Assembly: GCA_947084965.1 (NCBI GenBank)
Contig: CAMTUG010000004.1
Coordinates: 87,490 to 151,489 of the forward strand
Length of the DNA: 64,000 bases
Direction: 5' to 3'
Origin: an uncultured Parcubacteria group bacterium
Lineage (GTDB): Bacteria > Patescibacteriota > Patescibacteriia > UBA9934 > CAMTUG01
The position numbers and the translations under genes are program-made. The notes beneath the pieces were generated by a model. It ran no database searches and was not told the origin of the DNA. It saw only the letters and a list, made by a program, of their open reading frames with translations. Positions 49,441 to 53,803 of this stretch are shown in pieces (positions within the stretch are counted from its first letter, which is position 1; each line of letters begins with the position of its first letter).

Positions 49441-49672
49441 CGAGGGTTAGGTTTCAACCCACGGGCCGCCATGAATACAAAGCGACACCCGGTGGTGACG
49501 AAACCCAACCCCCGTACGGATCGTACGAGTGTTGTTTTAACCGGATGCCGCTCAATGCGTGCGATCCGGATAGGGAAAAATCCCCTGGTAAGGAGGTTGG
49601 GTTTCGTCAGGGCTAGAATAGCTTACAAACACCCATAAGTAAAGTCCTTTTTATGGAGTTTTGAGCCCTTCC
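49441..49672 (-). ncRNA. Candidate structured RNA between the DGR reverse transcriptase and GmrSD
   Basis: A perfect 15-bp long-range stem (TGACGAAACCCAACC / GGTTGGGTTTCGTCA) encloses about 95 nt with nested hairpins, CCGGAT...ATCCGG and CGTACGATCCGTACG. The strand was not resolved. Confidence 0.3.
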
Positions 49673-50833
49673 TTACCCTTTGGGGGTTTGAGAGGATGTT
49701 CGTGGTTTAAGGGGTGTTTCAGGTTCATTTTGATAATTCAACCGAACAACTTCGGATAGTTCATGAGCATTCCCGTGGCTCAGAATTCCGAGATAGGAGG
49801 AAACCGACTCCTTCTTTCCGCTCTCCTCGAGTTTTTTCAGCATTCTCCGTTTGGTCGTTGTCCGCAGCACTCGGTGATGTGGAAAGTTTACCCAGCCCAA
49901 AAAGTCCACGCCGGATGCAAGAGTGGCGATGGAAACCTTGTCCGGATGCAAGGCCAGATGCAGGCTCGCATCCAGAAACGAGGCAATGCGAGGAAGAATG
50001 CCTTCAAGGTATTCTCGCCGTTCGTGTAAGATGACGAAATCATCGGCATAGCGAATATAGAAAGCAACTCGAAGCTTTCTCTTCACATAGTGGTCGAACG
50101 CGTTCATGTAAATGTTGACCAGCAGCTGGCTGGTGAGGTTTCCGAGTGGCAAACCGACGCCGAGCTTGCCATCGGTATGAAAACTTTCAATAACTTCCGA
50201 TAGCAACCACATAATATCCGTATCATCGACATGCCTTTTGATGATGCCGATAAGAATCTCGTGATCAATATTCGCGAAGAACTTTCGTATATCGCATTTC
50301 AAAACCCAGGCTGTACGCGTATGGTTCCTGGAAGCTTTAGCGGCAAATTTCTGGAGACGGTTAATTGCGCGGTGCGTTCCCTTACCCTCACGGCAGGAGT
50401 AGGAGTCAAAGATAAACTTACGGTCGAAGAATGGATACAGAATTCGATAAATAGCGTGATGGAGAAGCCGATCCCGAACCGTGGCTTTATGGATATCCCT
50501 CGGCTTCGGATCATTAATTTTGAATGCATGGTATCCGCCGTGCCGATACGTCTTGTTTTTAAGATCATCGTTCAGGGCAGTGACATTGTCCAGGAGATGC
50601 AGCCCGAAGTCGGCGACATCTTCTCGCTTTCTCTTCCCGGACAAAAACTCCTGCCAGGCGGCAAACAAATTTTCAACAGAAATGATATCCTGATACGTAC
50701 TATGGAGCCGCGCCCCGAACTCTCTCTCTCTCTCTCTCTCTCTCTCTCTCTCTCTCGTGTCTCGTCCGCAAGCGCGACGATTCTCCAGCGCGTCAAAGAG
50801 GGATATTTGGTTTGGATGAACATTGCGCCGCAT
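49673..50833 (-). CDS. Diversity-generating retroelement (DGR) reverse transcriptase
   Basis: RT motifs PKPRDIHKA, RDRLLHHAIYRILYPFFDRKFIFDSYSCREGKGTH and YADDFVIL, plus the DGR-specific motif-4 signature LGNLTSQ ([I/L]GxxxSQ). An N-terminal (Arg-Glu)6 is encoded by the (GA)n tract. Confidence 0.85.
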   Translation of the reverse strand: MRRNVHPNQISLFDALENRRACGRDTREREREREREREFGARLHSTYQDIISVENLFAAWQEFLSGKRKREDVADFGLHLLDNVTALNDDLKNKTYRHGGYHAFKINDPKPRDIHKATVRDRLLHHAIYRILYPFFDRKFIFDSYSCREGKGTHRAINRLQKFAAKASRNHTRTAWVLKCDIRKFFANIDHEILIGIIKRHVDDTDIMWLLSEVIESFHTDGKLGVGLPLGNLTSQLLVNIYMNAFDHYVKRKLRVAFYIRYADDFVILHERREYLEGILPRIASFLDASLHLALHPDKVSIATLASGVDFLGWVNFPHHRVLRTTTKRRMLKKLEESGKKESVSSYLGILSHGNAHELSEVVRLNYQNEPETPLKPRTSSQTPKG

Positions 50834-51283: not shown

Positions 51284-51580
51284 GGCGTGCCACCATTGCC
51301 ACTGCCCGCCTATCTCAAAAGAGGTCGGGCTGTATTTTATGCGTGATCGAAAATCACCAAGCACACCATACCAAGTACTTCATTTTTGTTTGGACACAAT
51401 GCGCATCCTCCGAAGGGAACCGTAGCCACCCTCGTTCTCAACACGCATGTACCGAAAAGGCCTTTGGACAGCCGTAACCGCCCATATGAACCAGTCTAGA
51501 CGCCAGAATAACAAAAATTTTCCGATCCGCCTACGGCGGAAAGTATCAAAGGGTCAAAGGAACAAAGTTTCAAGAAGAAG

Positions 51581-53803
51581 CTAAGACTTCAAGGGTTTCT
51601 TGCGAAGACGGAAAACGAACTGACTGTACGCAGGCCACCCGTACGTCGGCTTCGCCCAATTGAGGCCGAGCCACGACCCGTCGTCATTGCGCCCCACGTA
51701 GAAGACGTGCGGCCAGCCGCCCGAGGCGGAAATTTGCTTCATGCCAACGTACACGTATTCGTTCATCGGCTGATTCGCATATTGCAGACGGAACTGCGGG
51801 CCTACTTCCGGCGGACAGAGTTCAAGGCCTAGTTCTTCCGCTCGGGCATAAATCTGATCCGTCGTGGCTCCGCTCGGGAACCCAAGGTCTTCGACGCGAA
51901 GGCGAATAAGCGTCGCTTCCTCCGGAGATTTGATCTTCCACTGTTTCCAGTCCGGCTGATTCTCATCCGGTTCTCGGAGAGATCGCTTGAAGTCGTCATG
52001 CTCCAACATCCATCCCACGTAGTCAAAGCGGTGTCCATTTTGCGTAAGAAAACTTTCTAGTTCACGTTCATCCTTGCCACCAATCTCAATGTTCTGGCGG
52101 GGGATTTTTCCTTCAGGGAAGGAAGTGTATACGTTCTCCACACCCTCGGGGAGACGGTCGAAGATGCCGGGATCGAGTTTGCCGACGTAGGCTTTGGTCG
52201 ATTCGTTGATTTGATCGACCGAATGGGCAATTTGGCTTTCGTCACACTCGAAGACAACAAGGATATCCTCGTCAGTATTTCGCTGACCACGAAGCTCCGC
52301 GACGCGTGGATCCTTATCATAACCGAAACCCTCGATAGGGGTGTCGATTTCGTAGAGGAACAGGAGGTCGTTTTTTGTGAGAGGTTTACCAACGACGGTT
52401 TTTTGTTCAATGAGCGTTAGAAGCCGCATATCCCCGGCCTTCTTCTCGTAAGCCGCGCCGTCCGGGAATTCTTTCATCTTTGCGCCGACGACCGGAGCGA
52501 TATGCGGATCAAGGTTTTGGTCGGGGGCGATACCGCGAACTTCGGCGATCTTGTCGCCTTCCATGCGGATGGCGGCGCGAGGGATGCTGTTTGCGCCGTC
52601 CTCGTCTTGCGAATAGTAGACGTAAAAATCACCGCGGGAGAGTTGAGATTTCGCCACCTCCTCTCCGGCGGTACACCAACCCGTCTTGTGGCGTTCGATG
52701 GATTGAACCAGCTCGGTTGGCTCAGAGCCTTTGTTGTACTTTATCCATTGTCCGGCGGTGTTATGAAGAAGCGTTTCACTTGTGGGAATGAGCTTGGCAA
52801 ATTCAAGGGCATAGAGTCTGGCAAAGTCCTTGGCATCCAAGGCTTGTTGAACTTCTGGTTCAAGATTGCGATCGTCGACAGGGGTTTCAATTTCAAACGT
52901 CGACGGATCAAATGGAGCCATGTCCAAATCCGCGATGATTCTTTCACGATCAACGGGTACGGTCGGATGTTGTTTCTTCGCTTGCGCAATCCTTTGGCCA
53001 ATAACAAGCTGGCGCTCCTTGTTATGCTTTCTTTCCGCTCGTTCCAACTCTTCTCTAGAAGCGGCAAGGCGCTCCTTGTACACACGATCATGCTCCACGT
53101 GGTCACGAACCTTTCCAAGAACGGCTTGATCCAATTCCGGGAACGGGTTCATGGTCTCTTCGTCCCTGGACGGAAAGACCTTGGTGTCTTTATCAAAGCT
53201 GGAAAGCCCGGTGACGCTTCTCATTGCCCAATACCTGAACCAGTCCGGATAGGCGGCTTGAGCGTCGTCGGTTGCCAGATAGTCGATCCATTTATCCAGT
53301 GATCGTTTTTGATCGTCGATCTTGGCGACGATTTCTTCCACCATCTGCTTTTGTTCGTTCTCAAAATCTTGAATTTCGTCCTTGATGTCCGACCCTTTGG
53401 CGCTGGCTTCGACCGCACGCGCGATCTGATCGCGAACCTCGTCCGGAATTTCCGTGTCCCCGTGTCCCAAGGCACGCGCTTGTTTTTGTTGGTGACCCAA
53501 ATATTCGTCGGTGGCGACGTTAGGCTTCACGATAAGCGCGTCGTGCATGAAGCGCTTCATCATGGAAAGATTGCGCTCTTTGCGGTCGAAATTCTCGTGT
53601 CCTTCGAGTTTGGGAGGGTTCAAAATCGTATCCAAGCGTCCAAGATAAGCCTGGATGCGTTCTTCGGGGGTATTGCGGACGCGAGAACCCTTGCGCTCCC
53701 GCGCGGCAACGGCGCGCTCGACATCCTCGGTTTTTTCCACTTGGTACTTTTGCCTGAGAAATTCAGGATTTGATCCATTTTCCATATGGGGGAATGGTAG
53801 CAA
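51581..53803 (-). CDS. DGR target (variable) protein, 740 aa, no signal peptide or TM evident, C-terminal VR
   Basis: C-terminus ...SASGGWPHVFYVGRNDDGSWLGLNWAKPTYGWPAYSQFVFRLRKKPLKS. The N-terminal about 600 aa have no recognised motif. Confidence 0.8.
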   Translation of the reverse strand: MLPFPHMENGSNPEFLRQKYQVEKTEDVERAVAARERKGSRVRNTPEERIQAYLGRLDTILNPPKLEGHENFDRKERNLSMMKRFMHDALIVKPNVATDEYLGHQQKQARALGHGDTEIPDEVRDQIARAVEASAKGSDIKDEIQDFENEQKQMVEEIVAKIDDQKRSLDKWIDYLATDDAQAAYPDWFRYWAMRSVTGLSSFDKDTKVFPSRDEETMNPFPELDQAVLGKVRDHVEHDRVYKERLAASREELERAERKHNKERQLVIGQRIAQAKKQHPTVPVDRERIIADLDMAPFDPSTFEIETPVDDRNLEPEVQQALDAKDFARLYALEFAKLIPTSETLLHNTAGQWIKYNKGSEPTELVQSIERHKTGWCTAGEEVAKSQLSRGDFYVYYSQDEDGANSIPRAAIRMEGDKIAEVRGIAPDQNLDPHIAPVVGAKMKEFPDGAAYEKKAGDMRLLTLIEQKTVVGKPLTKNDLLFLYEIDTPIEGFGYDKDPRVAELRGQRNTDEDILVVFECDESQIAHSVDQINESTKAYVGKLDPGIFDRLPEGVENVYTSFPEGKIPRQNIEIGGKDERELESFLTQNGHRFDYVGWMLEHDDFKRSLREPDENQPDWKQWKIKSPEEATLIRLRVEDLGFPSGATTDQIYARAEELGLELCPPEVGPQFRLQYANQPMNEYVYVGMKQISASGGWPHVFYVGRNDDGSWLGLNWAKPTYGWPAYSQFVFRLRKKPLKS
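51596..51735 (-). repeat. DGR variable repeat (VR) at the 3' end of the target gene
   Basis: It differs from TR at about 24 positions, almost all of them TR adenines in the coding sense (for example AAC to GGC, CTC, TAC, CCT, TAC, AGT). There are 2-3 non-adenine differences. Confidence 0.8.

Follow-up and report, generated by a model that had tools for sequence, protein, structure and literature searches.

The question raised by this locus is whether a reverse transcriptase gene and a short imperfect repeat, found in a 64,000-nt stretch of DNA from an uncultured Parcubacteria group bacterium (the window, to which all coordinates refer), belong to a working diversity-generating retroelement (DGR), and how such an element could be organized when its accessory gene avd lies inverted between the template repeat (TR) and the reverse transcriptase (RT) gene. 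A complete element at 49441–53803, with a layout described as unusual, had been proposed in a sequence-only reading of the window. The best explanation of the locus as a whole, to which we assign a probability of about 0.9, is an intact chromosomal DGR of the Candidate Phyla Radiation (CPR) lineage, with architecture B3, in a Candidatus Uhrbacteria-like genome. The cassette consists of the target gene with its variable repeat (VR), TR, avd, and RT, in this order and with avd reversed. The core of the proposed span was confirmed, while its outer ends proved loose, and nothing links the segment 49441–49672 to the element.

A retroelement with an adenine-directed repeat

The repeat search showed a 132-nt ungapped direct repeat on the minus strand, in which TR (51146–51277) and VR (51599–51730) share 83% identity at an offset of 453. 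VR covers the last ~44 codons of the target gene, within the predicted C-type-lectin-like C-terminal domain of its product. The homology of the two repeats had been recognized from the sequence alone, but with extents of 138 and 140 nt, which take in 6 nt outside the homology, and with a VR start at 51596 instead of 51599. When the repeats were compared in the minus-strand sense, 22 mismatches were found, 20 on TR adenines and two on C (51260 C>G and 51161 C>T; Fisher exact p = 1.2e-11). The substitutions tabulated by TR base are not evenly spread, which agrees with the proposed signature of adenine-directed mutagenic homing; the count of ~24 out of ~27 differences given for it also takes in these 6 nt. 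TR contains 37 adenines, many of them in AAC/AAT codons, and 17 of the 37 are left unchanged in VR. At the protein level, translated TR (SDSDGNPNVFNVERNDDGSWLNNNWAKPTNKWNANNQFVFRLRK) and translated VR (SASGGWPHVFYVGRNDDGSWLGLNWAKPTYGWPAYSQFVFRLRK) differ by 13 substitutions, including changes of N to G, L, Y, P, or S; the residues G, L, Y, G, P, Y, and S, previously read at the AAC/AAT codons of TR, are all among them. The VR positions that correspond to TR adenine codons are also hypervariable among the target homologs of the whole family. The 3′ ends of TR and VR, which were inspected for initiation of mutagenic homing (IMH/IMH*) sequences, differ at 51161 (C>T) and 51149 (A>C). No second VR-like copy was detected on either strand of the 64-kb window when TR adenines were treated as N. 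TR is located 321 nt downstream from the open reading frame (ORF) 51581–53803, on the same strand, and 313 nt separate it from the start of RT, with avd between them.

The RT is encoded by a 386-aa ORF on the minus strand (49673–50833, ATG at 50833–50831), which matches the Pfam family RVT_1. Its best match in the PDB was the RT of the Bordetella phage DGR (bRT, 8ub7_A; HMMER E = 4.5e-43), followed by group II intron RTs (8e-20). HMMER paired the LGNLTSQ sequence with GSLTSQ, and YADD with YMDD of 8ub7_A, hence both motifs noted in the sequence-only reading are present in the ORF, and the GxxxSQ signature holds in a software alignment to bRT. The alignment to 8ub7_A begins at query residue 41, right after an (RE)6 sequence, and the canonical body of the enzyme starts at about this point. 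An RT of another class (group II intron, retron, or defence-associated DRT/UG) with a coincidental TR/VR repeat could be suspected, because GmrSD and a type I restriction-modification system flank the cassette, and because generic PADLOC and NCBIfam RT models match weakly. However, all NCBIfam RT matches (group II, retron, and Drt models) score far under their cut-offs, bRT leads the solved relatives by 23 orders of magnitude in E-value, the adenine bias has a p value of 1e-11, and the same cassette is found with independent adenine-biased repeats in ~27 other loci. These data effectively refute this alternative, and we consider the protein, as judged from its sequence, to be a DGR-type RT.

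The avd gene is located on the plus strand (50702–51130, ATG at 50702–50704) and encodes a protein of 142 aa, which begins with MEPRPE-(LS)6-RVSSASATILQRVKEGYL... and continues into a four-helix-bundle body; the start codon is a predicted one, and the frame is open. The protein matches the Pfam family PF22296 (bAvd) with 53.6 bits against a cut-off of 40, which confirms a bAvd-like gene in the opposite orientation between TR and RT. Two observations weigh against this assignment. The NCBIfam model DivGenRetAVD gave 68.6 bits, under its cut-off of 80, though the full profile length was aligned, and a phmmer search of Avd against solved structures returned no Avd match.

The inverted position of avd is standard for the lineage. 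Architecture B3, which is TR-(avd)-RT, makes up 90% of the CPR DGR set (Wu et al. 2018, PMC5758913), while DGR clade 2 is CPR-restricted and has targets without recognizable domains (Roux et al. 2021, PMC8144416). We took 80 genomic loci encoding target homologs and located RT, avd, and TR in each of them. All of the ~30 loci with RT or avd beside the target contained TR in the RT sense, a reversed avd, and RT in this order, and share the TR-(avd)-RT arrangement. Wherever TR and VR could be matched over the full length, the locus had an adenine-biased pair of its own, with for example 21/21, 18/18, and 25/25 mismatches at A; such independent pairs were found in ~27 other loci, with 15–25 adenine mismatches each. 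In four loci (L013, L032, L076, and L080), and probably also in L071 and L079, the whole TR-(avd)-RT module has the opposite orientation to the target gene. In these loci TR and VR are on opposite strands, and the structured leader described below stays joined to TR. The occurrence of the module in both orientations means that it behaves as a rigid unit.

The host of the element also belongs to CPR. More than 2173 homologs of the target protein were found, nearly all in Patescibacteria, and the nearest named ones (77–84% identity) come from Candidatus Uhrbacteria metagenome-assembled genomes (MAGs); there is no rRNA in the window. The core definition of a DGR is fully shared with the CPR elements (Wu et al. 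2018, PMC5758913; Roux et al. 2021, PMC8144416), as are the reversed avd, the CPR chromosomal host, the target devoid of Pfam and transmembrane domains, and the C-terminal position of VR. Since its layout is ordinary for CPR, which is the largest natural reservoir of DGRs, the element joins an already known kind, and as a DGR it is one more well-resolved case of the CPR lineage. As a separate observation, many MAGs carrying the CPR-specific target and the DGR are labelled as uncultured Gammaproteobacteria, Saccharibacteria, or Muribaculaceae (L004, L007, L015, and others; binchicken co-assemblies), and are probably mislabelled bins.

By analogy with the Bordetella phage system, the TR RNA would be reverse transcribed by RT and Avd with misincorporation opposite adenines, and the resulting cDNA would replace VR. 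In this way, up to ~15 Asn, Asp, Lys, and Glu codons could be recoded on the ligand-binding face of the 734-aa target. Mutagenic retrohoming may still be going on, and the hypervariable VR positions among the homologs give indirect support for it. Alternatively, the locus could be a decaying relic, in which the divergence of TR and VR records past activity and the target is no longer diversified. The two non-adenine differences between TR and VR (51260 and 51161), the out-of-phase arrangement of avd and RT in most related alleles, and the ~50 out of 80 genomic target homologs without RT within 8 kb would fit a relic. It is harder to reconcile with the locus itself, where all ORFs are intact and in phase, the catalytic YADD box and the GxxxSQ motif are preserved, and the leader, the promoter box, and the stem–loop fit the clade consensus. 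The 17 out of 37 TR adenines that are unchanged in VR are also compatible with recent homing. Hence, a relic appears improbable, and an intact element remains the preferred explanation.

The DGR of Bordetella phage BPP-1 (mtd-avd-TR-brt) is the mechanistic prototype (Handa et al. 2018, PMC6182149; Handa et al., bioRxiv 10.1101/2023.10.23.563531). The two elements have in common a homologous RT (E = 4.5e-43) with GxxxSQ and YxDD motifs, the Avd protein, the adenine-specific TR-to-VR pattern, a C-terminal VR in a C-type-lectin fold (here predicted), and a stem–loop immediately 3′ of TR. The locus differs from BPP-1 in that avd is inverted between TR and RT, that a microsatellite lies within the head-to-head overlap of avd and RT, and that a large structured RNA is located 5′ of TR. 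Where BPP-1 has a 140-nt non-coding spacer after TR, there are here 9 nt, a stem–loop, and a U-run, followed by antisense avd. Moreover, the host is a cell and not a phage, and the target is apparently cytoplasmic and not a tail fibre.

A probable RNA unit around the template repeat

The sequence upstream of TR contains ~215 conserved non-coding nucleotides, preceded by an extended −10 promoter-like box, TGnTATTCT (51505–51513, minus strand; TG at 51513–51512 and the hexamer TATTCT at 51510–51505). A TGnTAtaaT sequence was present in ~20/24 loci at a constant distance to the leader, three inverted-module loci (L013, L032, and L076) included. The start of the TR-containing RNA is predicted at ~51498, and the promoter function of the box is suggested by its sequence. 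A scan with the sigma-70 consensus gave no convincing −35/−10 pair for RT or avd.

The region from 51498 to 51278 on the minus strand, directly upstream of TR, is predicted to form a structured non-coding leader with nine helices. The 330 nt upstream of TR were aligned from 24 loci, including those with the inverted module, and 18 sequences were folded with RNAalifold. The resulting fold contained 60 pairs in nine helices, 50 of them with compensatory changes. The pair-count test showed that 93.2% of the cells were paired, as compared to 41–45% in slid controls, and that there were 219 double-change cells, as compared to 33–53 in the controls; none of 500 shuffles (0/500) matched the observed values. 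The closing helix has 12 bp, and its 3′ strand (51280–51291) ends 2 nt before TR. Among the matches listed for an nhmmer profile, the leader was found in 104 of the 105 avd-bearing loci that were long enough, always on the strand opposite to avd and at a median distance of 153 nt from the avd stop codon. No Rfam match to the leader was obtained in the gathering scan of the window or in the E-value scan of 49400–51650. The invariant leader motif ACUUGG was also considered as a partner of the TR 3′ end (AAGU) in a primer:template duplex, but this candidate was rejected, because the TR end varies among loci (AACT, CAGT, or CAGC), while the motif does not.

On the other side of TR, a GC-rich stem–loop (CCGCGCT-TAAAC-GGCGCGG, 51118–51136) followed by a run of six T residues (51117–51112) starts 9 nt past TR on the strand of TR and RT (51112–51136 together, minus strand). 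It extends over the stop codon of avd and over its C-terminal RKNR codons, so that the U-run and the 3′ arm of the stem are antisense of the conserved (E/R)KNR codons at the avd C-terminus. The element was detected in a terminator scan, and among the matches listed in a direct stem search such a stem–loop with its T-run (T5–6) occurred in 90 of the 93 unique loci, the stems covarying and showing 66 distinct sequences. From its sequence, this element could be an intrinsic terminator, an Avd-binding stem–loop, or both. Putative Avd-binding stem–loops have been reported just 3′ of TR in 207/278 DGRs (Handa et al., bioRxiv 10.1101/2023.10.23.563531); that analysis reached no more than 40 nt upstream of TR and was therefore blind to the leader.

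The data suggest that TR belongs to a discrete RNA unit, which comprises the promoter, the leader, TR, and the stem–loop or terminator, and which may be transcribed separately. With a separate TR RNA unit, it would be understandable that an inverted avd is accommodated between TR and RT. The leader would then probably supply, from the 5′ side, the functions that the 3′ spacer has in the Bordetella phage. Its last helix, at the edge of TR, is found where the Bordetella phage RNA carries the stop duplex of cis-primed reverse transcription. Weighing against this arrangement is the fact that the terminator role follows from sequence features, and that Handa et al. assign Avd binding to the equivalent stem–loop.

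The main alternative is that the stem–loop serves for Avd binding only, and that the RNA continues into RT as one transcript, with antisense avd serving as a long 3′ spacer. Such an arrangement would resemble the avd-TR-brt operon of the Bordetella phage, and it agrees with the Avd-binding stem–loops predicted 3′ of TR in 207/278 DGRs, CPR included (Handa et al.). It is also consistent with the promoter scan, in which no separate RT promoter was identified, and with the invariable order of TR before RT on one strand. On the other hand, T5–6 directly after a GC-rich stem, in 90/93 loci, has the canonical form of an intrinsic terminator, the covarying structure is located upstream of TR and not downstream, and the downstream sequence is under constraint from avd, which it encodes on the other strand. 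Overall, we regard a single read-through transcript as a possible alternative with clearly less than an even chance, and we favor a separate TR RNA unit. The leader is a concrete RNA for reconstitution and cryo-electron microscopy, which could answer whether the cis-priming architecture of the Bordetella phage is conserved, permuted, or replaced in CPR.

Two further elements are located 3′ of the target gene. The region from 51580 to 51526 on the minus strand contains phased CTTTG(A/G) repeats (51541–51580) with a period of ~10–11 nt, which begin after the target stop codon, and then a GC hairpin, TCCGCC-GTA-GGCGGA (51526–51540). Both elements trail VR in both module orientations in the regions downstream from VR that were compared (L004–L081). 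The stem of the hairpin covaries among loci (CCGCC/GGCGG, GCGGC/GCCGC, and TGGC/GCCA), and its loop is GTA or GAA. By analogy, the repeats and the hairpin are candidates for target-site recognition elements, and the hairpin can be likened to the IMH-proximal hairpin of the Bordetella phage. It does not adjoin VR but starts 58 nt past its end, and it is missing in some relatives.

The overlap of avd and RT and its dinucleotide repeat

The avd and RT genes overlap head to head by 132 nt (50702–50833), and a (GA)18G/(CT)18.5 microsatellite (50720–50756) lies in the middle of the overlap. It is the only dinucleotide array detected by TRF in the 64-kb window, and its units match at 100%. The repeat reads as (RE)6 in RT and as (LS)6 in avd. 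The N-terminus of RT is MRRNVHPNQISLFDALENRRACGRDT-(RE)6-FGARLH44STYQDIISVENL..., in which the extension upstream of the repeat is MRRNVHPNQISLFDALENRR...(RE)n, and that of Avd is MEPRPE-(LS)6-RVSSASATILQRVKEGYLVWMNIAPH44IPKG... The two genes would thus be translated from ATG codons located 132 nt inside each other's coding region. The avd ATG (50702–50704) is the reverse complement of the RT His44 codon, and the RT ATG (50833–50831) stands in the same relation to the His44 codon of avd. Each ATG is in register with the codons of the partner gene, and therefore the length of the tract places avd and RT jointly in frame or jointly out of frame. In the allele of the window both genes are in frame. 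The (GA)18 tract would fix the frame of both genes, and changes in repeat number by strand slippage could switch both proteins off or on.

A (GA)n tract of 6–21 units or a G8–11 run was found at the same position in most relatives (L004, L005, L064, and L076 among them) and in ~100 metagenome loci. A degenerate pattern scan of metagenomes gave at least 120 loci, and the allele set comprised 103 unique alleles; the 36-nt flank specific for the window had no match in the first metagenome scan. The repeat number differed in six groups of contigs with identical flanks (11/13/15/17, 7/8/9, 11/12, 13/14, 14/18, and 10/18 units), where identity was defined as 100% or 99.7% over a 300-nt window, or as an exact 175-nt flank signature. 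These six groups differ also in phase, and not only in the number of units. In the allele counts given here, which refer to the matches listed, all 27 alleles with a spacing of 0 mod 3 (27/27) have both ATGs in frame and no stop codon across ~45 codons on both strands. In the other 76 alleles the canonical avd ATG was never in frame (0/76), and the upstream RT ATG was in frame in 4/76. The loci without a slippage-prone tract all have a spacing of 0 mod 3 (3/3). Among database Avd proteins, 59/120 begin with M-x(3-10)-(LS)n or its relic, while the other 61 are shortened calls; 17 database Avd proteins without the repeat start at the distal avd ATG. The shortened avd calls that could be traced to DNA came in all cases (6/6) from loci with an out-of-phase hypermutable tract. 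Gene callers currently shorten avd and RT at such out-of-phase loci, and the leader and the repeat are both of use for annotation.

The arrangement can be compared with phase-variable contingency loci. Examples are the CT/AG dinucleotide repeats near the start of the coding sequence in outer-membrane protein genes of Helicobacter pylori, and the poly-G tracts of Campylobacter and Neisseria. As in these systems, a perfect, slippage-prone tract lies between the start codon (here a predicted one) and the gene body, with a unit that is not a multiple of 3. The repeat number also varies in otherwise identical sequences, and in-phase and out-of-phase alleles coexist. The locus is different in that one repeat would gate two divergent, overlapping genes, that the host belongs to CPR, that the gated function would be a targeted mutator instead of a surface antigen or a restriction system, and that the ON and OFF states are here predicted from the sequence.

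Several observations speak against control of avd and RT by the frame of the tract. Only 24 of the 100 hypermutable alleles are in phase, while 45 are in mod 1 and 31 in mod 2, and therefore a neutral spacer fits these numbers as well as a mostly-off switch. In some lineages, e.g. L076, L032, L206, and L209, an RT ATG is located just past the repeat, and in 13 mod-1 alleles there is an alternative avd ATG at +4, which means that the coupling of avd and RT is not universal. Translation of avd could also begin non-canonically at a conserved Ile codon (ATT/ATC, in 70/77 loci), which is found four codons ahead of RVKEGYL. Additionally, the repeat-less group comprises three loci known at the DNA level, and the differences in repeat length were taken from assemblies.

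In an alternative explanation, the (GA)n tract is not a translational switch, but is part of a shared 5′ untranslated or promoter region, or acts as a purine-rich Shine-Dalgarno-like leader of RT. Avd and RT would then start beside the repeat (avd from ATT/ATC or TTG), and its length would have little effect on their output, or none. The phase distribution of hypermutable alleles, which is near uniform with 24% in phase, agrees with this explanation. So do the several loci with (GA)nGGAAA-ATG right before the RT body, the TTG at the Leu position before RIKEGYL in 24/77 loci, the Ile ATT/ATC ahead of it in 70/77, and the alignment of bRT, which starts just past the repeat, so that the 40-aa extension is not needed for a canonical RT. 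It is less easily reconciled with the window and L004, in which the stretch from the repeat to the conserved N-terminus of RT contains no ATG, GTG, or TTG, and where the avd Leu codon is CTC. The 3/3 repeat-less loci that keep both distal ATGs in frame, the 17 repeat-less Avd proteins that start there, and the 27/27 in-phase alleles that are stop-free over ~45 codons on both strands also argue against it. Furthermore, chemically different tracts, (GA)n and G8–11, at the same spot are the pattern of a contingency locus and not of a sequence-specific element. Taken together, an untranslated or spacer role of the tract is a serious alternative with somewhat less than an even chance, and the tract as a frame switch for avd and RT has, as judged from the sequences, about even odds.

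In a separate observation, 13 metagenome loci with 1-mod-3 spacing (e.g. L087, L102, and L104) contain a second ATG on the avd strand, which arises from the ATATCAT sequence of the RT "II" codons. This sequence is nucleotide-invariant, and its ATG is in frame with avd in some 1-mod-3 alleles, which hints at a state with avd alone translated.

The 215-nt leader, the head-to-head overlap of avd and RT, and the (GA)n/G-run tract were not found described in the available DGR literature, and the same is true of the terminator-like stem–loop embedded in antisense avd in the available literature. No mechanistic link between DGRs and phase variation was seen in the titles and abstract openings among the matches listed. 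The leader, the terminator-like stem–loop, and the hypervariable repeat in a symmetric overlap are clade-wide features, apparently undescribed, and they matter more than the identification of the DGR itself and place the locus above a routine DGR in interest. Taken jointly, they may reflect a mutator placed under a hypermutable (GA)n/poly-G switch, together with a rearranged DGR RNA, in which the 5′ leader replaces the 3′ spacer as the scaffold recruiting RT and Avd. We put this combination forward tentatively, as somewhat less probable than an even bet. If it holds, populations would carry mostly "off" DGRs that revert stochastically to "on", and the DGR RNA would end at the stem–loop and U-run right after TR. 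If the repeat gates Avd and RT, it would explain in a simple way how cells keep the cost of a resident mutator in check, and metagenomes should then show a measurable relation of repeat phase to VR diversity.

The target protein and the genomic surroundings

The target gene (51581–53785, minus strand) carries VR at its 3′ end, as was read from the sequence. The 740-aa ORF noted in that reading is open from TTG 53803, but ATG 53785 is the most likely start, as in an identical public protein (P0001) of 734 aa; an exact look-up of this protein gave no record. No match to the protein was found in Pfam, NCBIfam, or PADLOC, and a relaxed Pfam search with 43 homologs gave nothing consistent. The target lacks an evident signal peptide as well as a Pfam domain, and it is apparently a cytoplasmic, CPR-specific protein. 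The family has the invariant motifs TGWCTAGE, GDFYVYYS, PRAAIRM, and EVRG, and a conserved C-terminus, GMKQI.D..G.P.VF.L.R..DG.WL...WA.P...W.....FVFRLRK, in which the dots are hypervariable positions. The full-length model of the target had a predicted local distance difference test (pLDDT) score of 86, and its VR-bearing C-terminal domain models as a C-type-lectin-like fold, while the structure comparison gave no convincing relative for the N-terminal ~600 residues. This family, with its more than 2000 homologs and without a known domain, is apparently a major substrate, as yet unexplained, for hypermutation in the reduced genomes of CPR.

About 50 of the 80 genomic target homologs (L001/L006 included) have the same hypervariable-looking C-terminus and no RT within 6–8 kb, and one such RT-less homolog adjoins groES/groEL in a Uhrbacteria MAG. 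In these genomes the DGR is either remote or lost. Another locus (L057, 9696–13459) contains two target 3′ ends and two TRs, and it looks like a duplicated cassette or a second target.

The DGR cassette is located in a defence and mobile island of the window (40000–63000). One flank contains GmrSD (47276–49438), a DUF2779/Cas4-like nuclease, and DNA methylases. The other flank contains HsdR, HsdS, and HsdM of a type I restriction-modification system (54450–60208), DUF5655, and a large serine recombinase (61263–62636). ParB-N/DNA methylases and a terminase-small-like helix–turn–helix are also among the contents of the island. In a Patescibacteria MAG (L041) an HsdR protein with 97.5% identity is encoded next to a target homolog, and therefore this context is common to a close relative. 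The gathering scan of the whole window with Rfam detected a tmRNA gene (31445–31826) and otherwise only noise.

The spacer between the RT stop codon and the start of GmrSD (49439–49672, minus strand) can form a long hairpin with a 22-bp outer stem (minimum free energy −97.8 kcal/mol, z = −5.8). The hairpin was absent from all 203 loci compared and had no Rfam match; it was rejected as a part of the DGR, because it is not conserved in relatives. Finally, the GC content of the region 14700–23700 is 60–70%, as compared to ~50–55% elsewhere in the window, and the region contains very long ORFs on both strands. Its tandem repeats, with periods of 135, 141, 207, 339, and 414 nt, probably encode large repetitive Asp/Cys-rich proteins.

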